Below, piece after piece: positions 9,016 to 61,456 of a stretch of 64,000 nucleotides of DNA. Each line of letters starts with the position of its first letter. The stretch's first letter is position 1. This DNA is from Lingula anatina (Eukaryota; Animalia; Brachiopoda): positions 25,070,534-25,134,533 of the forward strand of contig CM120644.1 in NCBI GenBank assembly GCA_051362555.1. The letters run 5' to 3'. A model generated the notes under the pieces. That model did no database searches. It was given only the letters and a program-made list of their open reading frames with translations, and was not told the DNA's origin. A program made the position numbers and the translations under genes.

Positions 9016-9048
9016 TATAATAAAAGAAAAAAAACAGCAGCTATTTTG

Positions 9049-9079
9049 CCCCGACCGGTTTCATTCTTTCTTCAGGGGG
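9049..9079 (-). ncRNA. Second copy of the minimal hammerhead motif (inverted arm)
   Basis: Reverse complement of 11016-11046. Confidence 0.65.
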
Positions 9080-9566
9080 TTTTGTTTATTTGTTACCAGG
9101 TGATGTCATGAAGGTTAAAATGTGACGTCTATAACAATGGGTGTTTATTTGTTGCTTTAACCAATGCTATTATCTATGCAATGTAGGTTTATACTTATTA
9201 ATGAATAGATTTTCTTTCATTTACCTTTCTGTTTGGGTTGTTTCCCTAGTGAATTTATAAAATGGGAATATCGTAAAGTCCTTGTTTTTGTTCATAGAGC
9301 ATTCCCTAATGTGCCCACTCACAGACGTGCATTGATATTTGGGTTGTCTTATTTGTTGTCTGTGAACGGTCATTCTATGTCGGAGAGTGTCTCCAGTTTG
9401 TCCTATATAGTTCTCACCGCATCCACTGCAAGTTAATACATAAATTAAATTTGAGCTAGTGCGGGTGAATGGGTGGTTAATTTTAAATGTAAGTCCATTT
9501 TTAAATGTTAGATGGCTCCTCTCTTTGTCTCTTACTCTTTATAATCTGCATTTCAGTTAGTATCTC

Positions 9567-10925: not shown

Positions 10926-11015
10926 TAGCATTGGTTAAAGCAACAATGAAACACCCATTGTTACAGACGTCACATTTTAACCTTTATGACATCACCTGGT
11001 AACAAATAAACAAAA

Positions 11016-11046
11016 CCCCCTGAAGAAAGAATGAAACCGGTCGGGG
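11016..11046 (+). ncRNA. Minimal hammerhead ribozyme motif in the Penelope-like 3' UTR
   Basis: cccc-CTGAAGA-aagaat-GAAA-CCGG-TC-gggg: conserved CUGANGA/GAAA core, GUC cleavage triplet, palindromic ACCGGT stem III and a CCCC/GGGG stem I. Stem II is only one A-U pair. Confidence 0.7.
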
Positions 11047-11070
11047 CAAAATAGCTGCTGTTTTTTTTTT

Positions 11071-11153
<83 letters not shown>

Positions 11154-11203: not shown

Positions 11204-11258
11204 CCGAATCAGACATTTTCCGTTTGGGATCATTCGGATCGTCCGGATTGCCTGTCAT
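11204..11258 (-). CDS. Orphan start-codon exon (MTGNPDDPNDPKRKMSDS+1 nt), paralogous to 17122-17176
   Basis: Same length (55 nt), same phase-1 GTAAG donor, similar upstream UTR (gtcaa..ggaa..tgagaagggg..ATG) and shared NDPxxKM peptide. No downstream death-domain exon was found in the window. Confidence 0.6.
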
Positions 11259-11948
11259 TTCCCCCTTCTCAACTTCCGTTGACTGAGGACTTTGACCGAG
11301 AACAAATAAGAAGATAAATGAAGTGGCTGCAAATGTGTATCATAGTTATTATATTGCAACCGTGAACTACGGAAGACGACAATGTATGTACATGTACATG
11401 GATGGGATTAAAAAGTCATTTTCAGTCTGATACTGGTGCTATGGGTTTTGTATATTGTCCTCTTTAAATCTCTAAGGCATGATTTTTTGCATTTTTATTT
11501 TTTGCCAACTTTAGGGGTTAGTGGGACATTCGTTTTTAAATATCGTCATGGAGCATAGTTCTTTTTAATCGTTTTGTATATTTGATTTTTTTATCTGTAT
11601 GCAGTTTGTCCTAAAATCTGATTTCATTATCTTGGTTATTTGTTTCTGTAAGTTGTGTTTTAACACATTTATTAGTTTATGAGAATCATATAATCGTCTA
11701 TTCATATGAAGATGGAAGTACATGTAGTATATAAACGACGGCAGACTTACTAAAAAGGATATGACCCTGATAGGGCCCGCTAACTATGCACTTTATTTCT
11801 TGCAATATGCGTTTTAATATATATTTTACTACATTAAAAAGAAAAAAATGTTTTTTTTTTAGTTGGCATAACAAGTGTATATACACAAGATTCAAAAGAT
11901 AGGTGTTTATTTGAATACATTGAAAAGTGTTTTTATTGAACTAAGGTG

Positions 11949-14921: not shown

Positions 14922-15196
14922 TTACCCTAGCTTAAGGCTGTCCGCTAAGGCGCTATGTCTAGCCCTTGTCAACGCTCTTATCAGTTTGTCTCGACGCTCC
15001 TCATTGCTGCTAACCCCCATTCCTTCTCTCCACTGAAACAGCATTCTGCGAATCTGACCAAGTGTGTTACTGGGGAAGTTGAGTTTGAGCTGATCTATCT
15101 GAGGTCTATTCACTCCAAGACAGGCAGCTACTTCCTCCCACTCAACTCCAATATTCTTTGATAGGTCACACACCAATTCATCAGGTGGATAGAGAG
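14922..15196 (-). CDS. Terminal exon of a small death-domain protein
   Basis: LSKNIGVEWEEVAACLGV..IDQLK..P..GQIRRMLFQWRE..LIRAL....LAD matches the six-helix death-domain pattern. TAG acceptor at 15197-15199, phase 1, TAA stop at 14922. Confidence 0.85.
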
Positions 15197-17121: not shown

Positions 17122-17176
17122 CAGGAACGTCCATTTTTCCTTCGGGATCATTCTGAGCATATGGAGCTTCAGCCAT
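17122..17176 (-). CDS. Probable start exon of the death-domain gene (MAEAPYAQNDPEGKMDVP); joined product ~109 aa
   Basis: gatATGG context with an in-frame upstream stop, phase-1 GTAAG donor compatible with 15196, CAG acceptor at 17218-17220, and a paralogous exon at 11204-11258. Confidence 0.65.
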
Positions 17177-20100
17177 ATCCCCTTCTCAGGTTCCTTTGAC
17201 TTAGAATTTGACTGAACCTGAATGAGAGAAAGATTGGGTTGGTCGAACATGTATGTCTAACATATTATGATATTAATGATATGTGTTAGAAGATGGAAGA
17301 ACAACGAATTTGTATTTTCATGCAGAATGACGCCATTAAGAAGTCAAAAATTGATGTTACAAAAATGCTAAAATTTTGAAACACTGACCTTTTTTCTTCG
17401 ATACTAAAATGCCTGAAATAAATACAAAAATATAATGAAGAATCACAAATTAAGAATACAGATAAAAATCATATTTATATAAGAATAAAAATAATTGAAA
17501 ATGATAACTACAGCCACGGTCACAACCGGACGCACGGATTTTAAGATCGTACGTCCCCTGCGATTTTTGCGTGCAGTAGAAGCCGTGGAGGTCGTAGAGG
17601 TAGACGAAAGTCTGCCTTGCGAGTTGCAAGGGCCAAATGAGATGTCCTTTCAAGCAGGAACGCTAATTGCAATGTGCAGGGGCCGTGGAAATTGTAATCA
17701 TTTCTTGAATTTGTCTTGCTACCTGCGTACGTGGCACACACTCACCACTAAAGCCTAGGTCCCAACTACGTTTTGGACGCACGGTTTTTAGGTTCCTTGG
17801 ACGTAGCTAGACCGCAGGGAAGGAATCAAGTAAAGCCTAGGTCCCAACCGAACATACGGGTTATTACGTGTTGTCTACGGCCAAAAAATGGAGAAAACGT
17901 AAAGTGATTTTTCTCTTAGGAATAAGGTTTTGAAAAGGAGAGAGAGGGAGAGAAAATAAGAATTTCGACGCAACACACAAAAGGTACACCCCAGAAGAAA
18001 AGGACATGAAATAGTATGCACTGTACATATACCTCAAAGGATGAAAATAAGGGATGCCTTTGGATGGTGCCTTATTTTGTTAAAAAAATATCGGGCAAAC
18101 CAGGCTCATACATATTGTGCAATGAGGGAGGAGTATGCCAAAAATATGCGTTAACACGTCAAAAATTGAGATTACTAGATGAAAAATACACATAAAATAA
18201 ATAAATTGTTTTTGTTTCTTCATTAATATGCATGTAAACTGCCTAACGGAAAACATTGTAAAATATAAATATTAAATGTCATATAAATAGAATAAAGCAA
18301 ACGTTTATTATATCTTTAAAACTTGTATGTCTCTATATCTATTTATTCATGTCATTTCTTGGTGTAAACTATATAGGCCATGCGTTACTAAAATGTTATG
18401 AACGCACGTCCCATTAGGACGTGCATTACTACACGTAGGACTTGCATTACTTGTCAGTCTTCGTCCTACGGACATTGAATCCTAGTAACGTATGCCCTAG
18501 GACTTCCATTCCTAGCAATGCAAGCCCTTGGACTTGCATTCCCAAGACTAAGTGTCCGGGCGGACTTGGGTTACTAGGACGTGTACTCCTGCCACACCGG
18601 AATGGCGCGAAAAACAGACATTGCCAGACAGATGATTGTGTCAAACGGAATGGTCTGCACAGTTTTATAGAGTTATGCCCAGACTGATACACCTACACAG
18701 ACAACATGCCAAATGTATCGACATCTTACCACCACTGTCCTGCTATATATGCTGCTGCAATTAAACCAAAATCAACCAGTCCGTTTTGAATGAGGGGCAA
18801 ATTGTCACCAAATCGCGTTTTAAGGCTCTTAGCGAACACCAAAAGGGTTTCAGTAGGTTAGGATATGATTCATAAGTTGTCAAGTGGATGTTTCACAGCT
18901 TTATTTCAGTAATTTAAATGTCACTCAATGTTTAATATATCGGGTGTGGAATGGTGTACCGTTAGATTCAATTATAATTCAATTAACACTGAACCCTCCC
19001 CCCCCCCCCCAGCAGTCGATAGCACATTCTGACACCCCCCCCCCCCCCCGCCCCCCGGCCGAATTCTAGCTTAAGTTATTCGACTAGACCCTAAGTATTT
19101 CCATTGTATTAAGACAAATTATGTCAATGGGCATGTCCTTTCCTCGTCATTCCACAACAGACAGCGAAACCACAATCATAGACATAATTTTTGAAAACCT
19201 AACTGAAACTTAGTTATAACAATGGTCAACGGTCAAAACATAAAAAACGGTGCTTACCTAACTTGCAAACATCCGCCGAGCTGAAGGGTAAATATTGTTT
19301 TTCATTTTGTGAAGATCTCGCCATTTAATTCATATATGAGGTAACTATTAATAATGTGTTTTACAAGCTTAAGGTTGTGCTATAATGAGGCTGCCAATCT
19401 TTGGGAATATAAAGGCTGTCTTTTGAGACCAGTGGCCGCCAATATGACCGCTGGGGAAAGCCTTGTTTGTACCTCTACTACACAGAAAAGGGGACGTGTT
19501 ATATTTCATCAAATGTAAACACTTAGAATCCAGCCACACCAGTTGTGTCATCAGGCGAATATATTTTTTCCGTATCAGAATAATTCCGCACTAAGGTGAA
19601 AAACAAGATGGCGGGTGGCTTAAACTGAAGCTTTCAAATGTCCCACTTAGTTAGGTCACCATGTTATTCCTACATGTAACATAGCATGTGAACGAACGCT
19701 TGATTACTTTGATAATATTAGACTGGTTTAAAACGTAAGAAACCTCATACTATGACGTAAGATTACATTTTTTTGCTAAATCGGTTTACAATCCAGACTT
19801 CTACGCAGTAGGTACTTTAAGCGACTGCCATTGCTCAAGAGTAAATAAAATGCCTTCTTTTCGTGTCCTATGTTCCATTATGTGCCTTAAGGCTACACTG
19901 TGTCAACGGCTTCTTTTGGTATTATAATTTCTGTGTGAATACTTTGTGTTGATATTGATTTTCGATTCAAGACACAATGCGTTCTGTATTTTTGCTATGG
20001 AAATAAGCTGACACGGATAAAATACACCCCTTACGTTAGTGATGAAAGGAAACTCAAAGGACATGTGTCATACCGTCGGAATGGCCTGAACAGAGCATAT

Positions 20101-20817
20101 TCTTCAGAAAACATGACCAACCAACGATATCTTTATCTAAATACAAGAAGTGAAAGCTCATTATGTAAATTTTGGACTCTAAAAACGTCCTTTTTGCTTG
20201 ACCTGCGAGTAAATGAGCTACGTGGTCACGTGGTCTGATGACGACAATCGTGCCACCGGCGGAGCTGTCAAACTCAGCTGCATTGTCTACCTGTAAGATT
20301 ACTCTTCTGGCTTCTGAGATAAGTTTATACTCATTCAAATCTCTTACCCGAGGGGTCTAAATCCTCGTGAAGCTGTGATTTGAATGACTTGAGGGTACTG
20401 TTGATTATTCCATATGAGCTCTATGTTCTTTGTGAAATTCAATTTATTTCATTAAACCGCTTACAGTACCACCTGACCCAGATCTGTTGCTTCAATTATG
20501 CATATTGAGGTGAGGTTTACTAAACCGCTCTTTTTTCTACTAATATATTGTTTTTATAATTTTTAAATGGCGGGGTTCGATTAAAACATACCTCTATTGT
20601 ATAGATTGAGTGCTGAATCTTCAGAATTCGAGAAATGGATTTTTATGTGTCTATTGTCCTTTAAGAATGATAAAAAGTATTCACAATACATGTGATTGCT
20701 GTAACGCAGGTATTAATAAGTAGTTAATGAAAAGTCAATCAACTTTAATTTCTGTATGTTGTGATAAAGTAGTGTATTTAGCTTACGTTATTCTAACAGA
20801 ACAGCCTTCTTGAACTA

Positions 20818-22205
20818 CACACACTGGACAAAAGAAGTGTCACCCCGTAACTCAGAGTAATAAAAGTAGGCCGATCTTGGGTACTTATAATGTCTGGTCT
20901 ACTTATAATGTGACTAATGAGTATAAAACCGCTATACCATGGAATTGTATTGTTGGTCTTGTACATGTACAGCAAATGTTATTCCTGTCTTCCTCCAATA
21001 TGACAAGATACAGGCAATTATATAACGGTTATAGGTGCAAGTTATTAACCTGAAGAGGCGGAATATAAGCAATGTCAGAATATCGATACAATTGAATTGT
21101 TCAGTCAGAACCGTGCAGAGGGTCTGATCTCGGTATAGAAACACTGGATCAAGAGACAAATTGCCTCTGATGGGTCGTCCAAGAAAAAATACTGGCCGTG
21201 AAGACCGACGACTGATTTTGATGTCCAGGTTGTCAAAGTTCGACACTGCTTGTCAGTTGACAACACAGTGGAACAATTTCACACATAAGAATGTGTCTGT
21301 GAAAATTGCTAGGCGTCGGTTACATGCTCAGAGAGTGTGCAGCAGGGTAGCAAGACTGAAACCTCTTATATCGTTACAAAACAGGCAACGTAGAGTAAAC
21401 TAGGGTCAACAGGATCTGGAACTGGACAGTTCATGACAATTAGTCCTATATATTTTTTTCTGATGAGTGTCGCTTTGGTCTGACCTCTGATGACAGACGG
21501 GTACTATGCTGGCAAAGTGCTGGTAAAGCATTTGAACCACATGCACTTAATTTTCGAACCCGGAGCAGCATATTCGTCATGGTGTGGGGCTGCATCAGCA
21601 TCCATGGCTTGGGCGAATTGATAGTGGTTGATGGAAACATGAATCACTAGAAATATATCGATGTTTTGGAGTCAGGCTTGCTACCATCTATTACTAACAT
21701 GTTTGGTGACAGGAATTATCCATTTGTTCACCAGGATGACAATGCTCCTTGTCACAGGCCCAGATCAGTTGATGATTGGTTTGACCAACAGGACATTCGC
21801 AGGGTGATGTGGCCTGCCCAGAGTCCGGATGCAAACATAATAGAAAATGTGTGGAATGATATGTCAGAACTTTTTACAAATGCCCGTCTAACCAGCAGAG
21901 AAACTCTGTTATATTCAGTGTTTCATGCTTGGGCCAGCATTAGCCCTGAACGCATCAGACAATTATATGAAACCTTGCTTCGTAGACTGGCACCTATTAT
22001 TAGGTCACGTGGCTATGCCACTAAGTACTAATTTTGGACTTGAAACTGCATATTTTGGTAGAATGTATATTTTGTTCTCATTTTGTGATTTTTTTGTGAA
22101 ATTTGATGTTAATAAAATGATACCAGGAGCATATCATTCCGCAGTCATTTATCTCCCCCATAGTATTGGCTCAGTAGGGGTGACACTTCTTTTGTCCAGT
22201 GTGTG
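20818..22205 (+). mobile_element. Tc1-family DNA transposon, full length, inactive
   Basis: 29-bp TIR cacacactggacaaaagaagtgtcacccc at both ends, TA TSD, 1388 bp. Confidence 0.95.
21000..22031 (+). pseudogene. Tc1 DD34E transposase pseudogene
   Basis: GRPRK, FSDECRF, MVWGCI, QDDNAPCH...SPDANIIENVW (34 residues between D and E) and C-terminal GYATKY. Several stops and frameshifts. Confidence 0.92.
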
Positions 22206-22435
22206 TATTTGTGTAGTGTATGTGTGTACAGTTACCTGTGCGACTGACAGCCATGTTTGTTCTTCGTGTGTACCTCTATTCAAATACTGTTATAATGAAC
22301 TGAATCTCAATTCAACGTCACGATAATATTTAGAAAGTTTTATAGCGGAGGCGATGAGTTCGTAGATGTAATGCCGTTCCACAGTGATGAAAAAAGACTG
22401 AACAGCATCCGTTATCGCTTCTGTTAACCCCGCTT

Positions 22436-22472
<37 letters not shown>

Positions 22473-23266
22473 CCACCCTCCATATACACCTTCCCACACA
22501 GATACGTCGTCCCTACAGCCACACACTCACAGGTTGTCGTAACTTAAAATTAGTTGCGTGCTTCTGTATTATATAGATGTATATAGTAATCTCAGTTAAT
22601 AACGGTCCTCAACATAACAAAGGAACTGTGCAGTTTCCGGTCCCTTTAACGCCCCGCTGCACACACCCCTCCCCGACCAAACACTCATTCTTCCACACAC
22701 ATTTTTCCCACACACACCCTGATCCCCCCATGCACACACAAACACGCCGTCGTGATTTGGAATTAGTCGCGTGTTTCAATATCACTTACATAAATATAGC
22801 ACTCCCAGCTGCTTGACCAGCTAGCGGACTACCCGTTATAAAGCCAATGTACGGTTTGTGAGGTTGAAATTTTCCAGGTTATCAATATGTATGAAGACAG
22901 TTGTATTTTTAACAAAGGTGAAAGGACAACAGAAAGTTACCAATGCATAATTCATATATTTCATTGTAAAATGAATTTCTTTGACAGTAATAGGGGAAAA
23001 GGAGGATAAAATGAAATTTACTTAAGAAACTGAATTTAATTTTTTTTCAGTGCCCCAGAAAGCGTCGTTGACTGGCGACTGTGTGAACAGATCTATAGAT
23101 ATTATGATGATATATCAAATTAATTTATAAAAGTAAATATATATTATCAATCACAACCAACATTTTGTTGCTCTCATGCTTCGATACATCTTGCTTCAAT
23201 ATCCCTGGCACAATCTGCACCCCCCCCCCCCAAAAAAATAATAATAATAATAAATAAATAAATAAA

Positions 23267-25331
23267 TGTAGCCGTATGAATGTATTTTCTTCACTCGTGT
23301 TCGTCTTTTGTTTTGTCACGTGGGCGTCATCTTACTCTCTCATTCCCATTGGTCATCTTTCCCGCCTTTCGTCGCTTATAAATATCGTCGCCGCCCTTTT
23401 TCTGTCATTGTTCTTTGCTCATCGCTCTTTATATATTTACAGGTACGTGTCAATAGTTTAATTCTTTTATGAATATTATCATTATTATTATTATACTTAT
23501 TATATATTAAGATTATAGCTATTAATAACATTATTATGATGATCGCACATTGTTCTTTGCTCATCGCTCTTTATATATTTACAGATGGTATGGAATAAAT
23601 AAGAACAAAGAGAAATAGACTTTGTTGTGAACCGTTGCATATGGCGCTGCGAGCAGTTTCTGATTTACATACCGAAGCATCGGCGGAATGAAGCTATAAA
23701 GATGTGTCATGATGATATGGCGCATGTTGGTAGAGACAGAACGATAGAGTTGATCAGAGATCGATTTTTTTGGAATAAAATGTATTCCGATGTTGCAAAT
23801 TATGTGGCTACTTGTGACAGATGTGTACAAAGAAAATCAATTTCAGATAAGGCACCCTTAGTCAGTATGAGTTCATCACAGCCAATGGAAATGTTATGTA
23901 TTGACTATTTGACCGTAGAAGATAATAAAGGTGGTATTGCCAATGTGTTAGTTGTGACAGACCATTTTTCCAGGTATGCATTGGCATATCCTGCTAAAAA
24001 TCAGACTGCGTACACTACGGCAAAGTTGTTGTATGAAAATGTGATTGTTCATTATGGTTTTCCGGCAAAAATACATAGCGATCAAGGAAGAAATTTTGAG
24101 AGTAGCACAATTAAACATTTGTGCGAAATAGGAGGAGTGACTAAAACTAGAACCACGCCTTACCGGCCCCAGGGTAATGGTACGTGTGAACGATTTAATC
24201 GAACATTGCTAAATATGATTGGTACTTTAGGTCAAGATAAAAAATCGGACTGGAAAAAGTACATTCAAAGTTTAGTTCACGCGTACAATTGTACAAAGAA
24301 TGATGCAACCGGATATTCTCCGTATTTTCTAATGTTTGGTAGAAACCCTAGACTGCCTGTAGATTTGACTTTTGGTCTAGATGAACAGAGTGGGAATACA
24401 GAGCACTCAGATTACATTAGAAAATTAAAAAGACGATTGCAATATGCTTATGAATTAGCTTTTAAGAATTCCGTAGATCTTAAAAGGAATAACAAAGAAC
24501 GGTTTGATAGAATGACGAGAGGAGCTGTCGTCCAGCAAGGAGATAGAGTATTGATCAGAAACTTGGGGTTAAAAGGAAAGAATAAGTTGGCTGATAGATG
24601 GAAACCTGAAGTATATGTGGTTGTAGAACAACCAAATAAAGATATACCGGTATACAAAATTAAAGAAGAAGGAGTCAAAAGTGGAACATTGAAAGTTGTT
24701 CACAGAAATCACTTACTTCCTTTACCTGTCGGAGGATTGAGGAAGAGTAGTGAGAAAAAAGTGCAAGTTGAAGATCCCTCCATTCCAAGGAGGTCTAAAA
24801 GGGAGAAGAGGATTCCAGAAAAATATCAAGGCTAACTTAAAGCTTTGATTAATTTAGTGTCATATTTTAATAAAAACTAGATCATTGTTGTATAGTGTTA
24901 TTATTATTTGTGGAGTGAATGAAATGTGCGGAGACATTTCTTTGAGAAGGGGGGTGAATGTAGCCGTATGAATGTATTTTCTTCACTCGTGTTCGTCTTT
25001 TGTTTTGTCACGTGGGCGTCATCTTACTCTCTCATTCCCATTGGTCATCTTTCCCGCCTTTCGTCGCTTATAAATATCGTCGCCGCCCTTTTTCTGTCAT
25101 TGTTCTTTGCTCATCGCTCTTTATATATTTACAGGTACGTGTCAATAGTTTAATTCTTTTATGAATATTATCATTATTATTATTATACTTATTATATATT
25201 AAGATTATAGCTATTAATAACATTATTATGATGATCGCACATTGTTCTTTGCTCATCGCTCTTTATATATTTACAGATGGTATGGAATAAATAAGAACAA
25301 AGAGAAATAGACTTTGTTGTGAACCGTTGCA
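23267..25331 (+). mobile_element. Ty3/Gypsy LTR retrotransposon, internally deleted (integrase only)
   Basis: LTRs 23267-23639 and 24959-25331 (373 bp, TG..CA, no difference seen by eye), TSD TAAA, PBS TGGCGCTGCGAGCAG (tRNA-Ser-like) at 23642, PPT at 24944-24958. Confidence 0.95.
23702..24835 (+). CDS. Gypsy integrase, intact ORF (377 aa from first ATG)
   Basis: HHCC finger (CHDDMAH...CDRC), catalytic D (CIDYL), D (HSDQG) and E 35 residues later (TCERFN), and a GPY/F-like C-terminal region. Confidence 0.9.
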   Translation: MCHDDMAHVGRDRTIELIRDRFFWNKMYSDVANYVATCDRCVQRKSISDKAPLVSMSSSQPMEMLCIDYLTVEDNKGGIANVLVVTDHFSRYALAYPAKNQTAYTTAKLLYENVIVHYGFPAKIHSDQGRNFESSTIKHLCEIGGVTKTRTTPYRPQGNGTCERFNRTLLNMIGTLGQDKKSDWKKYIQSLVHAYNCTKNDATGYSPYFLMFGRNPRLPVDLTFGLDEQSGNTEHSDYIRKLKRRLQYAYELAFKNSVDLKRNNKERFDRMTRGAVVQQGDRVLIRNLGLKGKNKLADRWKPEVYVVVEQPNKDIPVYKIKEEGVKSGTLKVVHRNHLLPLPVGGLRKSSEKKVQVEDPSIPRRSKREKRIPEKYQG

Positions 25332-25349
25332 TAAAAATACTATCTTAGG

Positions 25350-29023: not shown

Positions 29024-29655
29024 CAATAACTTCATGATTATTATTGCAACATCTTAAAGGGAGACATTAAAACTGAACAGGCTTTTTTTTTCTCAAGGTG
29101 ATCTGACAATTTATTTTGGTTCCTGCGTGATCTTATGTATCTAAAAACTGTGGAAAACTGGCTTATAAAGCACCGTTATACTTGAACTAATGCAGACTTT
29201 TATCAACAAACACGGTGCAATCGCATTTAAGAAAAATATAGACTGAAAACTTGCAACAGTTAATTACAGTGAATATCGATTTATGCATGCAATTTCACTA
29301 CACATTGCAGTTTTAAAAGCAGTAAGCGTCCGCTTTTAAACACCTACTAAACAATCATTCACAAAAACAAATTACATAGTTTTAGTCATTATTATAAAAT
29401 TAATGGAAATAAAGATAATGGCAAAAATACTGTTAAAGGCAAACTGAAAACGTTTGTATACAGCAGACTCCTCAGCCCACTAGGCATGCTTCAATAACAA
29501 TGTCAGAAATTGAACTTTGATCTTGAACATGTCCTTGCCTTAACCTAAATAAACGCATCATCCCAGAATCAAAACACATGCTTTACATAAACTCCAGACT
29601 TAACATAAAGACCAAAGTCTACCATTTTTGTGATACGATTATCGTAGCCCCCACA

Positions 29656-29795
29656 CTAGGCCATTTTGGTCATGATCTTCAGATACTGCAATGCATTGTG
29701 GGCTGCGTTGGCATGGCATTCGCCAGAGGTGGGTCCGCTGCCGTGACACACAGCAACTGGCATGGTGGACAGCTGCACCAAACACTGACGATGGC
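29656..29795 (-). CDS. TARBP2: TARBP2-like last exon (C-terminal half of dsRBD3)
   Basis: ttccag acceptor; GHRQCLVQLSTMPVAVCHGSGPTSGECHANAAHNALQYLKIMTKMA*. Not represented in the ORF track. Confidence 0.92.
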
Positions 29796-32700
29796 CTGGA
29801 AAGAGGCAAAATTACCTTGACAGAGAGAAGATACTGAGAGAGAGAATTATTCGACCAGAATCTAAGAATAAACACAGACAAATGGGAGAGAAAATGGAAC
29901 TGCCTCCAGATCACATTCTAAAGGAATTTACTCTAAATATTATTCTGCCCGTATCTTCATCATGAAGTGCCATGCTGAGAGAAGTCGGCGACCACGAGGT
30001 GCCATTTCTTCTCTGCCTGTAATAATTTTAGGGTTTCGTCGGCTGTTTTTGTTCCGAACCAGACTGCTACGCCATCTATTGTTTTATCTTTTTGTCTTCC
30101 TCTGCTTCTTTTGACCAAAATGTTTAATGTAGTTATTATGGCTTCCAGGCCGCTTTTTCTTATGCAGTGTCCGATAAAAGTACATTGTCTCTTTCTTACT
30201 GTATTTCTGTGATTTCTGCAAGATGGTATTTTAAGTGTTTGTCTGCAGCACCACATTTCAACTGCATTAATTTTATTTTTTTCGTGGAATTACTTATGGT
30301 CCATGCCACGCAGCCGTAAGCCATGATACGCCATATGCATGTATAGGTTAATTTTAAGTACTCTGCTTTCTTCCTATTGGCAATTTTGCGGTTAGTAAGT
30401 ACTGATCACATATCTTTTATGCTTTTTTTGCTTGTCAAATTCTGGTCTTTATATCATATGGAAAATTATATTAAACAATTCAACGCATTGAGAGTTATTC
30501 GGCTACTAAATGCGACCTACATTTATTACTGAGATCCCGCAAGTCATCATATGTGACCTCAATCAAAGCACTGTTCCACAGTTTAAGAAAGTGACCTACC
30601 TTTATAACTGAGCTCCTGCAGGTCAACATAGGTGACCTACCTATATAACTGAGCTCCTGCAGGTCAACATAAAGTGACCTACCTTTATAACTGAGCTCCT
30701 GCAGGTCCACATAGGTGACCTACCTTTATAACTGAGCTACTGCAGGACAACATAGGTGACCTACCTTTATAACTGAGCTCCTGCAGGTCAACATAGGTGA
30801 CCTCAAAGCACTGTTCCTCTGCTATCTCCTGGAGTAGTTGACAGAAGTTACTGCCTCGTGTGTTCAAAGAGGTGGTGTGCAGCCTGTTCAGCTTCTTTCC
30901 TGGACAGAAAATACAATTTCTCAAGTGCAAAGTTTATTAAAAGCCTTGCATGACTATTTAATCATAACATAGACCAATTTCTAATCACAATCGCGACTTG
31001 TGGCCTAAATATACTATACTGGCCAAACAAAGAAAGCAAGGTTTTCTTTTTACCACTGTGCTTCAAATAAACCAAAAATGCATGGATAGCGGTGTGTCAG
31101 ACAGCAGGTCAACATGTGACCTCAGAGCAGTAGACCAGACCAGCAGGTCAACATGTGACCTCAGAGCAGTAGACCAGACCAGCAGGTCAACATGTGACCT
31201 CAGAGCAGTAGACCAGACCAGCAGGTCAACACGTGACCTCAGAGCAGTAGACCAGACCAGCAGGTCAACATGTGCCTCAGAGCAGTGCACCAGACCAGCA
31301 GATCAACATGTGACCTCACAGCAGTGGACCTAATCAGCAGGTCAACATGTGACCTCAGAGCAGTGGACCAGACGAGCAGGTCAACATGTGACCTCAGAGT
31401 AGTGGACCAAACCAGGAGTATTTACCTGAGGCATTTTTGAGCTGAGTGTAGAATGAACTGATCTTTCTGCTGACAAAGGGAGTCAGGGAGGGTATTTTCT
31501 TCCCTTTCTTCAAGTCAGCATAGGCAGACTTACTGGAGTCCATCTGAAACAAAGGAGTGAAGTTTTATCAAAAGACGGATGCTGCAGACTTACAGGAATT
31601 CATCTGAAACACTGAAGCAAAGTATTATTAATAGACAAAATACCTCCTTCCAAACTGAAACAGATCTATCGACGTCAGTTTAGGGTAGAGTAGGAATGAA
31701 TGGAGGAATAGTAACTCATTAATTCAGGTCAGGTGGACAAAGTAATTTACCTGCCGATACAAAATGAAACCATGTCTTACCAGAGCATCATCATCCTCTT
31801 CCTCCCAGGGACAATCTAGATCTTCTTGCGACAGAGACGTCACGTCCACGGCCTGCATCATTTTCATGGCAGCATTGCACTTGGCTTTCTTCTTAGATTT
31901 CCCAGTGCCTGCATGGCAAACACTGAGCAGTTTAGAATTGTAATTCAGTGAATTCTTCGGTTGTCACGCCTTGTTCACACTTCAGACTAAAGTTGTATTA
32001 ATGGATTTAACAGACAATCAGGCAACATACAGTAGTTCAAAGCCAAAGTAACTTTGTACTCCCTGATTTTAATGGCTCTGTATTTCTGTATCATAAAACA
32101 TAGAAGCCACGTTGTGCTATTTACTATTTAACCTATTACACAGAGGAATTAGTTCAATAACCTATCCGTCACACCTATTTCACAATATACCAAATATAAT
32201 GTGCAACCTTTTAGATATGCATAAAATTCAAGTCACAAAATTCAAACATTATCTTCCAACTACCTTCCATTGCGACATAATGGATAACACAATCATTATG
32301 CCCATACACAACTCGGATGAGAATCAATGGCATTTCTGAGGAAGACTTCATTAAAATTGTGAACACATCGGGCATTTTAAACTTTGAATGATAAACTTAT
32401 TAATTCACCTCTTTTTGTAATCCTCCCCAGTTTCACATTGCACACAAACTCTCTATCGTGGGGAGGTCCCCTCACACTGGTTATCTCGTACTGCGGGGGA
32501 CTCAGTAGACGTTTCTGCGCTAACTCCTGCAGTTCTCCAACAGGGTTGTCTCCAGTGCCATCTACAGTACTGGTGGGAGCAGCCACTTCTCTGTAGCTAC
32601 TCTGTCCTATCATCCGGTTCAACACTGTCCTGGAACCATTGTGTTTTGCTCTCTCCTCGCTGGAGTCTTAAAGATGCACACAAAGTCAAATTTTTGTCAC

Positions 32701-35696
32701 AAAAACCAACCAAATGCCAGCATATAGTTTCAAGTAGTATAACTAAGAGAATTACCAAAAGGCATTGTTTAATTTTACCAAAAAATGATGTTTTAACGGA
32801 TTTTCTGCTGGCATTCTAAGCTGTATGTCAATGGGGCAGGAAAGTAGGTCATGAAAGTAGGTTAAATTTACAACCAAAAACTTAAAGAAAGGAGCAGTCT
32901 AAAGGTCTTTTATGGCTGATCAAGTGATCTATTCAGTTTATCCCTTGGCATGTCGAATTTATTTGAGTCATATAAGAATCTAGTAGAAGTGGTTTACATG
33001 TGTTACTGGGAATCCACGCTCCACCGATGCTCGGTTCGTATGTACCTTTAATTCACCACTCAGGGAGCTTTTGGAAGAGAATGGCATTTCTTAGGAAGAC
33101 TTCAGTAAAATTGTGAACACATCGGACAGTTTAAACTTTGAATGATAAACTTATTAATTCACCTCTTTTTGTAATCCTCCCCAGTTTCACATTGCACACA
33201 AACTCTCTATCGTGTGGAGGTCCCCTCACACTGGTAATCTCGTACTGCGGGGGTCTCAGTTGACGTCTCTGCGTTAACTCCTGCAGTTCTCCAACAGGGT
33301 TGTCTGCAGCGCCATCTACAGTAGTGGTGGGAGCGGCCACTTCTCTGTAGCTACTCTGTCCTATCATCCGATTCAACACTGCCCTGGAACCATTGTGTTT
33401 GGCTCTCTCCTCGCTGGAGTCTTAAAGATGCATACAAAGTCAATTTTTTGTCAAAAAAACCAACCAAATGCCGGCATATAGTTGTAAGTAGTATAACTAA
33501 GAGAATTGCCAAAAGGCATTGTTCAATTTTACCCGAAAATGATGTTTGAACGAATTTTTCTGCTGGCATTCTAAGCTGTATGTCAATGGGGCAGGAAAGT
33601 AGGTCACAAAAGTAGGTTAAATTTACAACCAAAAATTTTAAGAAAGGAGCAGTCTAAAGGTCTTTTATGGCTGATCGAGTGATCTTTTCAGTTTATCCCT
33701 TGGCATGTCGAATTTATTTGAGTCATATAAGAATCTAGTAGAAGTGGTTTACATGTGTTACTGGGAATCCACGCTCCACCGATGCTCGGTTCGTATGTAC
33801 CTTTAAGGTAAAAGGTTAATATTACGAAACAACATTCATCGCCTTTTACCCTCTTTGTTGATTGAAACATTTTCTACCAAAAAAAGTATGCTAAAGAAAA
33901 CACAGAATCTTTAAAAATCACATTATTATCATCCTTGAACATCAAGGTTTTAACTATTACATGATTTTTCATTAAAGTTGGAAAATTTAGTCTGAAAAAT
34001 GCAGAGTCAGACCACTTCAGGAGATCCAGTGTAAGTGCTCACCTTCATCGTCGCTGTGAACCCAAGCGGAATATTTAAAATCTAAAGAAAATTGAGATGT
34101 GTTATTAAGACAATGCAAGCTCTCCAACAAGATTTGGAATTAAATGCCTTACATATCAAAGATGTTGTTACTTGTGTAAGTCTAAATGTAAACATGCAAT
34201 TTGTATGAATAAAATGATCTGCCTAGCAATGTATAACAAAATCGGAAAAAAATTAAAGCACCCAAGTTCAATTTATTGCTAGCTGTACCTTAAGGGTGTG
34301 GCTCTTTGGGTGTGTCTGCTGGGCACTATACCCACCACTTAAATTGTCTGTCGTTGGTCATTCAACTTCCCTGGGACTCTAAGGAACATTTTACAGTTAT
34401 TTTTAGATTAACTTTTGGTGCATGCTAGCCGGATTTCCACCCCCTATAAATCAGGGTCTGCCGGCCACACCCCACCACTCAATTTGTCTGTCAGTATCTA
34501 TTTAATATACCTGAGACCATGCTAAAAGAACCCCAATAGGTTTATAAGGGTTCCCCTAAAAAGTCTAGCTAGCTGGATTTGAGGGTCTTTGTTTTGAACT
34601 CCCCACCCCGACCACACCCACCACTGTAAATACGGCAGACTGACATTTTCATATAAAGGTAAGCATGTAGGTCACTGCCAGGTACAAAAAAATTGGTAAT
34701 CTTTCGGGCATACGCAACCCTCTTGAATCCTTCTCTACTATACTTACACTCTTGATCTGAAAGAAAAGATATTGTAGATGAATAAAGATTATTAACTTTA
34801 AAAAATGTGAGCACCCTCCTACTTTTATTGAGATATAAGGTTTTTAAATATCTTTTAAAATATCCTTAAAATATTAAAATATCTTTAAACATCTGGGGAG
34901 TATTTGCCAATGTAAAAATCTTAATGAAAATTGGAAGTTGAAATTGGATAAACTGTTTCCAATTTGCCATGTTAACCAAAAGTGCACACAAATTATTATT
35001 GAAACACTGCAGTTTAATGTTCATAATTTAAAGGTTGACATGGGTACGTTTTGTCATTTCTTGATTTCTTCAATACTTACATTCTCTGACTGAAAAAAAA
35101 ACATGTTGCAAATGTAGATTGATGGATATAAAATGGTGAAAAGTCTACTTACTGTAAGATTTCGTCCTGGCATTTACATGTACAAGTCTTATGTATAACT
35201 TTACCGTTTGGATAAAATGGCTCCCGAATCACAAGGTTTACCAAAAATCTACACAATTATTTAAACAAGCAATACAAATCTATTTTACCTGTTATAAGGG
35301 CTGGCAAATATATCTGTAAATGTGTTCTAATTTCATCAATACTTACCACCAAAATCCCCTGGAAAAAATGTATTGTGGATGAAGATAAATGTTATATGAA
35401 TAAAAAATTCCAACTCTTGTAAGTTTTTCTCTAATTGAGATATCAGTTTAATATCATTAAACATCTAGAATCTAGTTACTTTTGTAAGTCTTTATAAAAT
35501 AATGCAAAAATTATTTCCAATGATCTCCCAAAATCGTACAAAATTATGTAATCAAACTACCCCATTCCTATTTTCTTTTTTTTTAAGTTGACTGAAATAT
35601 ATATAATTGATCCTGGCATTTTTCATACTTACGTGTTGTTCTCCTGACTGAAAGAAAAAAAATATATATATATATATAAATATATATATAAATATT

Positions 35697-35753
<57 letters not shown>

Positions 35754-35904
35754 CAAGCGTGAATGTGGAACAGAGTGCTCAACAGTACGGAGCATTTGTA
35801 CACAATTAAAATTAATAAATAAATAAATAAACAAAAGACATGCATGTCTTTTGTTTATTTATTTATTTATTTTAATTGTGTGTGTGTGTATATATATTTA
35901 TATA

Positions 35905-35963
<59 letters not shown>

Positions 35964-37969
35964 AGATTTCACATATTGTAAATTCTCTTCCTATCCTTAT
36001 CGAGGTATGAAGTTAAATATGTCGTAGGGTTTCCAAAATGTAATTGCTTGTGTAAAAAAAATCTTTTTGAAATTATGCAACTATAGCATTCTGCTAAAAT
36101 AACTGCCAAATCACAATCTTCACAGAAAGCTTACAAAACAATTTTAACATTGGTAAAACATAGTTCATCTTCCCTTTTTATTGATATAAATGTGTTTTAA
36201 TTTTCCTTGTTTCCTCAATACTTACGCCTTGTCACTGAAAGAAAACAATATTGTAGATGAATATAAATGTAACATTAATGAAGGTTTCACTTAAAACATT
36301 CACAAGCCTAGAATTTAGTTGCCTCTGTAAGTCTTAATGATTATATGCAATTTTATAAATTATATGAATACAGTGGTTTCTGCTTTACAATGTGCAAAAA
36401 AACATACAAAGTTATGTTATCAAAGCATTCCAGTTTCATTTTCCTTTTTAAAGTTATCAAGACCAAATTTCATTGTTCCTGTTTTGTACATACTTACATG
36501 TTCTTGACGTTACTGAAAGAAAAAATATCCAGATGAATATAGATTTATATTGAATTTTTAAATTATGAATGCATTATGAATTTTAAAATCCCACATATTG
36601 TAAGCTCTCATACCACCTATATCCGGGTTTGGAGTTTAATACCTTCCATATCTTATAAAATGCAGTTGCTCTTGTAAGTCTTAATGTAAATATGCAATCT
36701 GTATGAATAGAATGGTTTCTGCGTAGCAATGTACAACAAAATCGTACAAAGTTATGTCATCAAAGCATTCCACCTTTATTTTTTTTTTTTTAAGTTAACA
36801 AGAATATTATCCATTGTTTCTGCTTTGTACATACTTACATGTTCTTGATGTTACAAAGAAAAAAATATTGCAGATGAATATGGATTTATGATGAATGAAA
36901 TTCCATTCATTGTGAGCTCTCCTCTTACGTATACCCTTATCGAGTTATGAGGTTTAATATATTCAGATAACTAAGATGTACTTGATTAGGTAAAATTATA
37001 AATGAAATTATCCATATCGGAGTTTGGATAAAATGACTATCAGGTCACGATGTTTCACCCTGAGCTTCAGAGATATTAGTAAGCCTCTTCACTATAGCCT
37101 ATCTTCATCGTGTCAAGTTACCTCTGACCACATTCGATTGCCCGCACCGCCCGCCAATCAAATTTAAAGCCCGCCCTCAATGACTCATTGAACGATCTAG
37201 CCAATGAACGCGAACGAGTCAAAGCGCACTTTGTTCAAATCCGGACCAATCAAAGATAATGCTGAATATCAGGGACTTGCCGTAACCTGTGGACAGTACG
37301 CAAAATACGTCATCCCTCATCATCCCTCAGTAGATAATGATGCAGGGCCTCAAACTGCTCTGGTTTCAATTCCGATATACTCATATTTTGCAAAGAATCA
37401 AGAGATAACTTAACACATTCTTTTACGTAGTCACTGGTAGGAGACGCCATGCTTTTTTTTTTGTGTGTGTGTACGGTTATGCACTCGGAACTACTCGGAT
37501 GTCTTCGCACTCGACAATAACATCGTTGTTAGTATGGAGCTTGCGGAATCAGCCGAGGAGTGCCGATTGACGGTAATGCGGACGCAACGAAATACAATTT
37601 TCTCGTTGGACATAATTCTGGACTTTCAACCAATCAGCGTTTCAACAAATTTTGGTGAAAATGTTTGAAACATGGATTCGATTGGCTTATATAAACTAGG
37701 TCAAACTATTTTCGTCAGAAGTAACTTGACACGATGAAGATAAGCTATTGTGAAGAGGTCAGTGTCAAGTTATCTCTGAAGCTCAGGGTGCCATGTTTGC
37801 AAAAAAGAGTACACAACTATGTTTTCAAAGCACTGCAGCTCGGTTTATATTGTGACAGGATGTCAAATTTATCTTTTACTGTTATTTATTTACTTAATGC
37901 TTACCCTTTCGTTGGATCTCAGAAATGCTCTATGAGAAGGTAGAATTAATGCTTACCCTCTCTTTCCAT
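29656..37969 (-). CDS. TARBP2: TARBP2/PACT/Loquacious-like dsRNA-binding protein with a remodelled N-terminus. Exons: 37957-37969, 36498-36512, 36226-36234, 35633-35647, 35347-35358, 35081-35089, 34748-34756, 34043-34081, 33163-33420, 32409-32666, 31781-31908, 31426-31543, 30765-30899, 29656-29795 (385 aa if all included)
   Basis: dsRBD2 (NPVGELQE..PPQYE...GPPHDREF...GTGKSKKKAK), Loqs-like linker (IPSLTP..ISSFYTQLKNASGKKL) and dsRBD3 (LLQEIAEEQCFEVTYVD...QCLVQLSTMPVAVCHGSG...AAHNALQYLKIMTK). All junctions are GT-AG and phase-compatible. The 3' exons are secure; the 5' micro-exons are inferred. Confidence 0.85.
29955..30450 (-). mobile_element. RTE-clade LINE 3' remnant in the last intron
   Basis: KINAVEMWCCRQTLKIP...KRQCTFIGHCIRK...KRSRGRQK resembles the RTE ORF C-terminus; degenerate. 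Confidence 0.75.
30591..30803. repeat. 41-bp minisatellite (5 copies) made of the exon 3' end plus splice donor
   Basis: Unit ctacctttataactgagctcctgcaggtcaacataggtgac at 30596, 30637, 30679, 30720 and 30761. Confidence 0.92.
30765..30899 (-). CDS. TARBP2: TARBP2-like exon (N-terminal half of dsRBD3)
   Basis: GKKLNRLHTTSLNTRGSNFCQLLQEIAEEQCFEVTYVDLQELSYK; phase 1-1. Confidence 0.9.
31103..31413. repeat. 39-bp minisatellite, 8 copies
   Basis: Unit agcaggtcaacatgtgacctcagagcagtagaccagacc. Confidence 0.92.
31426..31543 (-). CDS. TARBP2: TARBP2-like linker exon
   Basis: MDSSKSAYADLKKGKKIPSLTPFVSRKISSFYTQLKNAS; phase 0-1. Confidence 0.88.
31781..31908 (-). CDS. TARBP2: TARBP2-like exon (dsRBD2 helix 2 + acidic linker)
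   Basis: GTGKSKKKAKCNAAMKMMQAV...EEEDDDAL; phase 1-0. Confidence 0.9.
32409..32666 (-). CDS. TARBP2: dsRBD exon, copy B (258 nt, phase 1-1)
   Basis: SSEERAKHNGSRTVLNRMIG...NPVGELQELAQKRLLSPPQYE...VKLGRITKR; intact splice sites. Confidence 0.85.
33163..33420 (-). CDS. TARBP2: dsRBD exon, copy A (258 nt, phase 1-1)
   Basis: Tandem duplicate 754 bp away; open frame, intact splice sites, several amino-acid differences (TQRRQLR vs AQKRLLS). Confidence 0.8.
34043..36853 (-). other. Micro-exon array (15, 9, 15, 12, 9, 9 nt, then a 39-nt exon) in ~270-340-bp homologous intron units, plus one dead copy at 36839-36853
   Basis: Each micro-exon is bounded by a T-rich ...cag acceptor and a gtaagta donor. 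Every length is a multiple of 3. The intervening introns share sequence. Confidence 0.75.
37056..37790. mobile_element. Non-autonomous TIR element with 8-bp TSD (hAT- or P-like)
   Basis: caccctgagcttcagagata...tatctctgaagctcagggtg with ~70-bp imperfect TIRs; flanks cgatgttt / ccatgttt. It splits one of the micro-exon intron units. Confidence 0.85.
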
Positions 37970-39099
37970 TTTCACCTGTCAGCCTCCTCTCACGTAGAAC
38001 TTGACTGAATGTTAATAAGATGAGAAATGGGTTCGACGTCTGTCTGACTTCACAATGTGGGTACTACTGGACGAGAAGACCTAAGAACAACGAAAGTGCA
38101 TTAAAATGTCGAATTATATCATTAAGAAATCAGTGTTAATTTTATGAAAAGTGGTTGAATTGTGATTTACATGTGGAATTATGCCATTAAGAAGTTAGTG
38201 TTTATGTCATAAAAGTGGTTAAATGGTGATTTTAAATTACTTCTAATCTTATTAAAAGCATTTCCAGAGTATATCAGCCAAAAAAGAAACGCAAGTTTTT
38301 CACCCTTTTTTTGGTTTTAATACGCGTTTTCATACATGTATAAGAATAGTGCATAAATGGTAGTGTATTGTTCAGGAACACGTGTGCCCTCCTCTGGCTG
38401 CTGTAATACAGCCTAGTACCATCCTCATGGACCACCAAAAAAGCTAAAGTCAGTTCCTTAGTTGACTAGGATTTCCTTCAGGGTGTTGTTATGTCACTGA
38501 ATACAGTGATCATTACTTGACTAGCATGTGCAGTTTTCGGTTATTTTGAATCACAATGTCAAAACAAAAACTTTCGTTTCTTTTTCTTTTTTTTTTTTTT
38601 TGGGGGGGGGGGGAGCAGTATGTAATAATATTACCTAATGAACTAAACCGTTAACAAAAAGAGTTATAATCAAAAATAATAAAATGATAACATACTAATA
38701 TAACATACTAAAGTCCAGATTCATAAATAAATATGAAATAAAAAATACATAAATAACTACTGTAGGTTAATTGAAAAGGCAGATAATGTGAAAGGTGTGT
38801 TGATAATACTGTTGCTTACAATGGTTTACATCATACTGTACATTTAACAGAATCCATGTATTTTGTTACAGATGGCAATTTTTCTTCAGGTTCTTTGCAT
38901 TAATCATATACCTTTCTTGAGATTCTTTGGGGCATTAATATAACAGTACTCAAATCAAAACATTAGGTAACCAAGTTTTTTATAGCACGTTCTTAACAGG
39001 CAGTAACCCATCCTTAGACAGGACTAACACGAACTGGGAGATAAGAAACGGGGCCTTGCTTGGAAAAAAGACGTGATCTCTGATTTACACTGCACCTTA

Positions 39100-53669: not shown

Positions 53670-54287
53670 AGAGATCTTGCAGAATATTGAAAGACTTGTC
53701 TAAATGTATCTCTCTCGCTCTCTCTCACTTTAATCAAAAAGGAAAACATTAGCTAGGAGGTGTGTAAGGGACTGGTAGACGTGCCCCCCATGGGATGTCT
53801 GCAGGGGGGGGGGGGGGGGGTAGCGTGTTTGTCCGAGCAATGTAACATGAGTAGAATAACATATCGATGATGAAATATAAACGTGCGGTCGACTTTCTTG
53901 TCTTTTGGTTTAGGTAATCAGCCACTGCTTCAGTGTTATGATTTCACCCTTATGATTTCCACAAATATGCACTTGTTGTCCATTCACTGGAAAATATACC
54001 AGATTATTTGATTTCATTCACGAAGAGTGCTACGTACTTTCTTACAGAACTTGGCCTGATGCTGGGGTATTTGGTAAAAACTCAACATCGCTGAGTTTAT
54101 TTCTCCAAAAATTACTTGACGTCGACAACATTGCATAAAATTATTGTATTTGACTAAATCTTCTTGTAAATCTTTTCAGAAACTTGATCCATGGCCAGAG
54201 GCGACAGTTAAGCACGATGCAGACAGACGCTACCTGGTGACGTAAAACACAGAACGCAGGCGTAAAAACTAAATATCGAAAATAAAA

Positions 54288-61425: not shown

Positions 61426-61456
<31 letters not shown>

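Follow-up and report, generated by a model that had tools for sequence, protein, structure and literature searches.

Background

TRBP/TARBP2, PACT and Loquacious-PB are Dicer cofactors with three dsRBDs. In the fly protein Loquacious (Loqs), dsRBD3 and the linker preceding it were reported to bind Dicer and to mediate dimerisation (PMC4748816). Aedes Loqs2 was described as a lineage-specific Loqs/TRBP paralog with changed domain content and faster evolution, derived from two dsRBD1 duplications and expressed mostly in reproductive tissues (PMC10809485). In schistosome micro-exon genes (MEGs), runs of symmetric exons no longer than 36 nt were described, which can be skipped in frame, together with exon duplication beside transposable elements (PMC8293314). 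Their coding sequence consists mainly of micro-exons, exon skipping varies their proteins, and their products carry a signal peptide or are secreted or membrane proteins. The brachiopod phylum was listed with one TARBP2 in a survey restricted to proteins having every diagnostic domain (PMC4793324, Table 1). Neither Lingula micro-exons nor the locus described here were found in the literature by title or start of abstract, and subscription papers or supplements may describe the locus.

The window, a stretch of 64,000 nt of contig CM120644.1 of Lingula anatina, contains a TRBP copy with the dsRBD2-linker-dsRBD3 order of TRBP, PACT and Loquacious (Table 1). It differs from these proteins by a foreign head of 41 residues (7 Arg, 5 Thr), a tandem dsRBD2 exon and fast dsRBD2 evolution, and of dsRBD1 it retains only a charge-reversed last helix. 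The copy resembles Aedes Loqs2 in its lineage-specific origin, altered domain content and faster evolution, but it lost dsRBD1 and kept dsRBD2 and dsRBD3, and the abstract on Loqs2 mentions neither a foreign leader nor micro-exons (PMC10809485). As in MEGs, the six micro-exons (9 to 15 nt) are symmetric and skippable in frame, and an exon is duplicated beside transposable elements (PMC8293314). Unlike in MEGs, micro-exons account for only 8% of the coding sequence of the 299-residue product (12% including the 39-nt exon), and a hydropathy check, not a dedicated signal predictor, detected no hydrophobic segment in the head (highest nine-residue Kyte-Doolittle mean -0.01) and pointed to neither a signal peptide nor a secreted or membrane protein. 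We regard the locus, at about even odds (probability roughly 0.5), as a young exon-shuffled TRBP paralog standing behind the leader of an unrelated gene and an older micro-exon array, predicted to dock on Dicer or TRBP through dsRBD3 and to contact RNA through one remodelled domain.

Table 1. Features of the locus and of related modules in the window (positions in the window).
Feature	Position	Strand	Remarks
Leader exon	37957..38080	-	5' UTR; ATG 37969-37967 (sole ATG of the exon); phase-1 donor
Degenerate seventh micro-exon unit	36839..36853	-	Acceptor AG gone, donor intact; 14/15 letters as in the next exon
Micro-exon 1	36498..36512	-	15 nt, phase 1
Micro-exon 2	36226..36234	-	9 nt, phase 1
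Micro-exon 3	35633..35647	-	15 nt, phase 1
Micro-exon 4	35347..35358	-	12 nt, phase 1; missed by the pyrimidine cut-off of the strict scan
Micro-exon 5	35081..35089	-	9 nt, phase 1
Micro-exon 6	34748..34756	-	9 nt, phase 1
39-nt exon	34043..34081	-	Phase 1; peptide also in deposited P0075 (XP_013403518.1)
TTAA element	33422..33806	.	385 bp, inverted termini, TTAA at both ends; sits in the acceptor of exon 33163..33420
TRBP exon, copy D1	33163..33420	-	258 nt, phase 1-1; EERAK-bearing remnant of dsRBD1 helix 2, shortened linker, dsRBD2 to strand 3
TTAA element, second copy	32668..33051	.	Left end is the breakpoint of a 727-bp tandem duplication
TRBP exon, copy D2	32409..32666	-	Clusters with deposited P0001 (XP_013392191.1) and P0075
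TRBP exon	31781..31908	-	dsRBD2 helix 2 with KKxAK intact, acidic linker
TRBP linker exon	31426..31543	-	Splice joint to the following exon visible in canonical-gene reads
TRBP exon	30765..30899	-	End of linker and start of dsRBD3
Final TRBP exon	29656..29795	-	Remainder of dsRBD3 and stop; first downstream AATAAA/ATTAAA at 29115
Related leader exon	17122..17217	-	Phase 1; shares its frame with the Death-domain exon
Death-domain exon	14922..15196	-	Phase 1; 71-81% identity to the final domain of ROC-COR-Death proteins from Lingula
Third related leader exon	11204..11290	-	Phase 1 (approximate 5' end); a GIY-YIG retroelement follows

TRBP-derived exons and their deposited relatives

The copy descends from the TRBP lineage, as it grouped with Lingula TRBP at 100/99 in a tree of 19 TRBP-type rows, with no other families. 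P0001, P0075, D1 and D2 formed one clade (100/99), sister to the canonical-type P0003 (XP_013380589.1), and the stem of this derived clade reached 0.28 against 0.041 changes per column. Named top matches were TARBP2, Loquacious or PACT-like, and when P0001 was searched against 1.84 billion representatives, P0075 and P0100 (XP_013418700.1) were again among the best six of the matches listed. The derived type was deposited twice, in models having neither the six micro-exons nor the ATG exon of the window. A nine-residue linker deletion was common to P0001, P0075, D1 and D2, and EERAK to P0075, D1 and D2.

The exon described in the initial annotation as a dsRBD exon is indeed TRBP-type, but it holds just the last helix of dsRBD1, changed from KKKAK to EERAK, and most of dsRBD2. 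Neither a six-frame HMM of 107 full-length homologs (whole list) nor the tblastn matches listed for 10 protein queries revealed an exon in the window that encodes dsRBD1 from helix 1 to strand 3. A three-domain-type N-terminus with full dsRBD1 exists in public L. anatina proteins (P0003 and P0100). The dsRBD2 motifs, i.e., helix-1 glutamate, GPxH loop and KKxAK (taken from PMC4748816 and PMC5852647), were all present, with flanking conserved residues altered (E65V, R97C). The dsRBD3 exons were intact, and the domain family PF16482 is precomputed on P0001. The TRBP part reads as a 259-codon frame free of stops and frameshifts with all splice sites intact, and the phase-1 frame is open from the leader ATG through to the stop.

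The dsRBD2-bearing exon is duplicated in tandem, and the acceptors of D1 and D2 both carry an inserted element. The end of the element next to D1 now provides the pyrimidine tract of the exon (14 of 20 pyrimidines). Judged by read depth on both strands, this TTAA element is multi-copy.

Divergence was concentrated in dsRBD2. P0001 differed from the canonical protein at 14/66 residues in dsRBD2 and 3/90 in dsRBD3 with its adjacent linker (Fisher p 0.0005), and the window copy at 14/66 and, compared with P0100, 7/90 (p 0.018); such a contrast was absent in 40 of the 107 outgroup proteins (0.31 vs 0.33). Compared with canonical reads, the dsRBD3 exons had a synonymous distance of 0.10-0.11. Rough omega values for dsRBD3, based on 30 coding sites from 40 of 754 rows (reads less than 90% alike excluded), were 0.13-0.15 when shared changes were counted and 0.30-0.35 once the private changes of the window were added, populations being mixed. 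These comparisons indicate that the copy has remodelled its RNA-binding half and kept dsRBD3. At position 30771, the letter of the window occurred in 21/132 reads (19 of them from one run), so that shared alleles or gene conversion, and not selection, may explain some of the similarity in the 3' part.

RNA reads and possible decay

Reads from four of nine listed RNA runs, drawn from three studies, were analyzed, covering 6-25% of each run and about 6,450 million letters in total; the sampled animals may not carry the window copy. Depth over the leader bin (37816-38112) was zero in 4/4 runs, and no leader or array reads were obtained, exons of 9-15 nt being probably too short to anchor reads alone. 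As the ATG exon was without reads, neither skipping nor inclusion of micro-exons was observed. Reads over the TRBP exons were canonical at the derived-type marker sites (59/59 at 33210, 60/60 at 33192, 84/84 at 31879).

Such a pattern would also be expected of a fusion that is real in DNA but now silent or dying. Its splice signals would then be a legacy of the donor gene, and its frame would still be open because the copy is young; we consider this possible, though less probable than the paralog proposed above. Consistent with decay, near-invariant residues were changed (G1D, K4E, K5E, A11G, A12S, E65V and R97C, outgroup frequency 0.93-1.0), the 3' exons carried six residue changes absent from P0001, some at half-conserved sites, and the codon differences between D1 and D2 comprised 8 replacements and 5 silent changes. 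One of the seven array units without acceptor, the element lying in an acceptor and the duplicated exon point the same way. Decay does not readily account for the 259 open codons, for dsRBD2 having changed far more than dsRBD3, or for 17 replacement to 13 silent differences against a neutral 3.4:1 (p 0.015; partial list, both lineages mixed), and the derived type recurs in two further deposited proteins. Taken together, the locus is a genuine TRBP paralog, lineage-specific and exon-shuffled, that was probably functional at one time and may be decaying.

The micro-exon array

The six micro-exons and the 39-nt exon were recovered at the coordinates given in the initial annotation, on the minus strand, with YAG and GTRAG at every one. 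All lengths are divisible by three, phase 1 is the sole open phase through the joined exons, and none of the 128 skipping combinations (39-nt exon counted) contains a stop, as had been proposed. A strict micro-exon scan of 34-37 kb gave 8 hits, corresponding to 6 distinct exons and 2 internal alternative acceptors, whereas 1000 block shuffles yielded 0.04 hits on average and never more than 2; the array is not a product of chance. A further scan hit of 25 nt (37905-37929) was discarded, since the preceding intron would be 27 nt long and use of its donor by the leader leads to a stop. The head belongs to no recognisable family in an Atlas search with residues 1-40 of P0075 (best score 0.76).

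Array units are arranged in tandem and share an identical 8-nt donor, GTAAGTAT, in 7/7 units. Their introns were pairwise 48-71% alike, with 35 of 168 ungapped intron-body columns invariant, a longest invariant run of 4, and only 21% of 177 gap lengths divisible by three (pairwise alignments, pairs being non-independent). The intron preceding the 39-nt exon matched the array units (z 3.3-27, 5/5), while the intron following it did not (z -0.9 to 1.7, 0/5). Because this preceding intron is homologous to those of the array, the 39-nt exon was counted in the borrowed part. Its interpretation as a relic of dsRBD1 strands 2-3 was ruled out, as 37% of 2000 shuffles scored equally and the upstream intron is array-type. 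Kinship between the two micro-exon arrays of the window was likewise ruled out (10/10 comparisons, z -1.0 to 1.1).

Given intron units 48-71% alike against a synonymous distance of about 0.1, the array appears older than the TRBP copy. It would then have been inherited from the donor gene and not made for TRBP, and selection on its splice sites could not be credited to the fusion. This weighs on the initial annotation, in which combinatorial skipping yields a TRBP-like family with varied Arg/Thr-rich heads tuning partner or RNA choice, a model that we find improbable. Every exon being symmetric and in phase 1, the absence of stops in all combinations and splice sites preserved across old units agree with it. 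Frame retention on skipping is nevertheless a near-automatic consequence of symmetric exons: among 5000 exon-letter shuffles phase 1 was open in 6.9% and all combinations in 4.2%, i.e., in about 60% of the open shuffles, so that skip-safety carries little further information when the complete string already reads open. Donors were uniformly strong consensus, pyrimidine tracts held 14-16 of 20 pyrimidines, and no exon stood out as weak. With the ATG exon uncovered in 4/4 runs, inclusion or skipping seen in no read, a head without recognisable family and an array predating the TRBP duplicate, the splice-diversifiable, combinatorial head was not borne out.

The leader exon and its relatives

Among 3194 windows searched on both strands, the best non-self matches of the leader were the exons at 17.2 kb (score 66) and 11.3 kb (score 40), against a mean of 18 and a best other score of 35. 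The three leader exons each end in phase 1, 13 nt past an ATG. By this resemblance, the ATG exon of the TRBP copy is assigned to another gene family. With no dsRBD1 core exon in the window, the canonical N-terminus encoded elsewhere and a foreign ATG exon, the chimeric nature of the paralog claimed at the outset is upheld.

Within 25 kb, a single leader family precedes two modules that are unrelated to each other, namely a TRBP tail and a Death domain of ROCO type. Neither a ROC nor a COR exon was found in the window, and a scan with relaxed settings recovered no micro-exons in the interval from the 17.2-kb leader to the Death-domain exon.

In another reading, which we find doubtful, the leader and array still belong to a gene of their own and splice to a different phase-1 exon, e.g., that of the Death domain (15196), while the TRBP fragment is an insertion read, if at all, from an internal ATG. 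The frame shared by the 17.2-kb leader and the Death-domain exon, likewise of phase 1, and the annotation of P0001 from an internal Met fit such a split. Against it, the Death-domain exon is preceded by a separate leader, and the gene model P0075 joins the peptide of the 39-nt exon to the TRBP exon. The TRBP exons, moreover, lie on the same strand, their acceptors are intact, and they end in a stop with an AATAAA further downstream, so that they would capture the leader transcript.

Proposed origin and significance

Phase-1 exon shuffling and tandem duplication of an exon plus intron are known mechanisms, and they account for array and fusion. For the young TRBP paralog favored here, we infer that an unrelated gene contributed the leader exon and the older micro-exon array, and that the 3' part of a TRBP duplicate landed downstream of them, with a breakpoint within the intron 33807-34042. 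Translation would have lasted long enough for selection to hold dsRBD3. The predicted product would dock on Dicer or canonical TRBP through the kept dsRBD3 and, contacting RNA through one remodelled domain only, would hold it less well. Present at low level or restricted to certain tissues, it may compete with or modulate the Dicer-TRBP complex. The micro-exons would represent an inherited, hydrophilic, frame-keeping spacer and not a selected combinatorial device.

A bolder extension, to which we give little credence, would make leader and array a portable phase-1 cassette placed on immune or silencing modules. On TRBP it would produce splice-varied Dicer-docking decoys whose RNA-binding half was positively selected (e.g., against viral suppressors or germ-line transposons), the optional duplicated dsRBD2 exon acting as a switch between 299 and 385 residues.

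The locus is a record of exon shuffling in which both donors are identifiable and datable, although the donor gene of the array itself was not found, and it shows that current Lingula gene models overlook micro-exon heads. If silent, it would be a clear but ordinary young chimeric duplicate. If expressed, it would be a candidate RNA-silencing regulator and a natural TRBP with the Dicer/dimer interface kept and RNA binding dropped or remodelled, that is, a built-in test of the contribution of dsRBD1.

Micro-exon array and selection

The six micro-exons and the 39-nt exon described in the initial annotation were found at their reported positions with canonical splice sites, and its reading of phase 1 as the sole open frame, with no stop in any skipping combination (0 of 128), was confirmed. 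A strict micro-exon scan gave 8 hits in 34-37 kb, against a mean of 0.04 in 1000 block shuffles. Every micro-exon lay within a homologous intron unit, and these units were 48-71% alike (56% on average), 35 of 168 alignment columns being invariant. The 8-nt donor was identical in all seven units and the acceptor was kept in six of seven. Exon lengths were all multiples of three; among 177 gaps in the intron alignments (non-independent cases), 21% were. Because donors, acceptors and exon lengths were kept while the introns diverged, we conclude that selection acted for a long time on an array that was spliced and translated. The absence of stops on skipping added weak evidence, as with shuffled exons the full string was open in 6.9% of cases and all combinations in 4.2%. 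The head encoded by the leader and the micro-exons spans 41 residues and holds no hydrophobic segment.

Coordinates of features in the window (blank where not given)
Feature	Position	Strand	Remarks
Inverted duplication, 2.3 kb	255-7406		98.5% identity
GIY-YIG retroelement	8400-11080		nested, partly inverted; downstream of third leader; presumably Penelope-like
Third leader exon (11.3 kb)	11204-11290	minus	partner exon not found
Death-domain exon	14922-15196	minus	
Leader exon (17.2 kb)	17122-17217	minus	with Death-domain exon, predicted Death-domain-only gene (two coding exons, 109 residues)
Tc1-like element	20813-22210		label by eye
LTR element	23265-25333		identical 377-bp LTRs flanking integrase ORF
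TRBP exons	29656-33420	minus	
Intronic minisatellite	30514-30803		copies of 3' end and donor of dsRBD3 exon 30765-30899
Intronic minisatellite	31098-31418		
TRBP exon copy D2	32409-32666	minus	
TRBP exon copy D1	33163-33420	minus	
39-nt exon	34043-34081	minus	
Six micro-exons	34748-36512	minus	
Inverted-repeat element	37050-37790		first intron; multi-copy, deeply covered by reads from other loci; holds decayed coding fragments resembling helicase (by eye)
Duplicate of leader's donor region	37905-37929		short, 52 nt downstream; using it would close the frame
Leader (ATG) exon	37957-38080	minus	
Gene with coiled-coil and Death-like ORFs	54273-56471	plus	480-residue helical or coiled-coil ORF, then Death-like domain ORF (Pfam Death E 4.5e-6); SPAM match under curated cut-off
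Second micro-exon array	60643-62495	minus	ten 15-nt micro-exon-like units; host gene not identified

The second array was unrelated to the first and younger, three compared units being 89-94% alike. Pyrimidine tract, AG and GTAAG were intact in four of its ten units, a site being lost in the remainder, and phase 0 was the only open frame for the intact units.

A TRBP copy with a truncated first domain

Of dsRBD1, the first TRBP exon covers little more than the last helix, in which EERAK replaces KKKAK and five near-invariant positions are altered; the exon then runs through a linker nine residues shorter into dsRBD2. Four further exons encode the rest of dsRBD2, the linker and dsRBD3. The TRBP frame was intact over 259 codons, as was every splice site. 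Copies D1 and D2 form a 727-bp tandem duplication (95% identical), with a 385-bp element bearing inverted termini and TTAA ends in the acceptor of each. A product of 299 residues is predicted, rising to 385 if both D exons are included; the hybrid domain of the longer form, aligned by inspection, is two residues short, ends in EERAK and would be unlikely to bind RNA.

The only longer match to the dsRBD exon was L. anatina XP_013392191.1 (P0001; 93% identity), and with P0001 as the query, the best 120 of 505 matches included four L. anatina proteins. Two of them, XP_013380589.1 (P0003) and XP_013418700.1 (P0100), contain a complete dsRBD1, so that the canonical three-dsRBD copy which the initial annotation proposed to look for does exist among deposited Lingula proteins. 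The derived features of the window copy were common to P0001 and XP_013403518.1 (P0075), and the derived type is therefore recorded outside the window. P0075 starts with the 39-nt exon peptide joined to the TRBP exon, and an Atlas search assigned no family to its residues 1-40. Tree building on the D-exon region placed the derived rows together in one clade (100/99) whose sister was P0003; the derived stem measured 0.28 versus 0.041.

Leader exon, fusion point and relative age

The best non-self matches of the ATG exon among 3194 both-strand windows were the 17.2-kb and 11.3-kb exons, and in all three leaders an ATG is followed 13 nt later by a phase-1 end. The Death-domain exon, with which the 17.2-kb leader shares a reading frame, has 71-81% identity to the final domain of ROC-COR-Death proteins from Lingula and is predicted to be a ROCO-derived last exon; no ROC or COR exon was found in the 64-kb window. 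With the leader matching other exons, canonical TRBP present elsewhere and helix 1 to strand 3 of dsRBD1 missing from the tblastn matches listed for the 64-kb window, the suggestion of a chimeric TRBP paralog was supported.

Because the intron before the 39-nt exon resembled the array units in 5 of 5 comparisons (z 3.3-27) whereas the intron after it did so in 0 of 5, the fusion point likely lies in 33807-34042. Most RNA reads were 90-95% alike to the TRBP part, and the silent distance of the dsRBD3 exons was 0.10-0.11, which makes the TRBP part young as judged from sequence. Set against that distance, array duplications ranging from 78-80% alike (youngest) to near 50% (oldest) indicate that the array is older than the TRBP copy, unless the rate of change in its introns is several times that of silent sites. 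An older array would place the signature of selection on the micro-exons in a putative donor gene.

Selection on the TRBP part

Compared with canonical proteins, dsRBD2 differed at 14 of 66 residues in both P0001 and the window copy, whereas dsRBD3 with its adjacent linker differed at 3 of 90 in P0001 (p 0.0005) and at 7 of 90 in the window copy (p 0.018). The contrast was absent from outgroup proteins (0.31 for dsRBD2, 0.33 for dsRBD3; first 40 of 107). Such an asymmetry would not be expected of a copy dead from birth. Rough omega for dsRBD3 was 0.13-0.15 for shared changes and 0.30-0.35 when the private changes of the window copy were added, with silent sites drawn from 30 coding places in 40 of 754 rows, populations mixed and reads below 90% identity left out. 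Six 3'-exon changes of the window copy were absent from P0001, which suggests its recent relaxation. A decaying duplicate, which such relaxation would favour and the asymmetry counts against, is a less likely alternative. At position 30771, the window's letter occurred in 21 of 132 reads (19 of them from run X4), which makes allele sharing or conversion possible at the 3' end.

Expression

Four of nine listed RNA runs, drawn from three studies and labelled as the same species, were aligned to 29500-38400. TRBP exons were covered and spliced, and reads at three derived-type marker sites carried the canonical residues (59/59, 60/60 and 84/84). Depth was 0 over 35143-36627 in the four runs, and the bin with the 39-nt exon, which adjoins a repeat, reached 0.35 in one run. 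A rare 34043-33420 joint may occur among 12 joints and 270 loose ends beyond those listed. The four runs count against broad expression of the window copy; its expression may be tissue-restricted, and the sampled animals may be without the copy. The proposal that splicing diversifies the head in combinations was not borne out, the leader bin having depth 0 in all four runs; stop-free skipping notwithstanding, true combinatorial splicing of the micro-exons appears improbable. Equally doubtful is a division of leader and array from the TRBP part as separate units, which the P0075 N-terminus counts against.

In run X7, eight reads joined 29792 to 30597. Canonical-gene reads of this run diverged from the window at 29606, 50 nt past the stop, into an AATAAA; the window copy has none there and its next AATAAA is at 29115.

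Comparison with known systems and proposed role

The window gene descended from TRBP, yet it does not retain three full domains. It has the exon form of schistosome micro-exon genes (MEGs), whereas the make-up and signal peptide of MEGs (PMC8293314) are absent. The nearest functional parallel is Aedes Loqs2 (PMC10809485), with the opposite domain choice. A bivalve survey gives one TARBP2 for Lingula (PMC4793324). Literature searches, with subscription papers and supplements outside their scope, found no paper on the locus.

In fly Loqs, dsRBD1 and dsRBD2 bind RNA, and dsRBD3 with its preceding linker binds Dicer and dimerises (PMC4748816). Human TRBP engages siRNA through the KKxAK motif in each of its two N-terminal domains (PMC5852647); the KK motif and RNA affinity are treated in PMC5435087. 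The dsRBD2 of the window copy is remodelled yet keeps GPxH and KKxAK, and its dsRBD3 is conserved. Because dsRBD1 is lost, dsRBD2 remodelled and dsRBD3 conserved, we favour, at a probability of about one half, a competitor or modulator present at low level or in restricted tissues, in which the micro-exons would be an inherited hydrophilic spacer. Without dsRBD1 and with a remodelled dsRBD2, such a protein would likely hold its RNA substrate more weakly, and through the conserved dsRBD3 it would likely occupy Dicer or pair with canonical TRBP.
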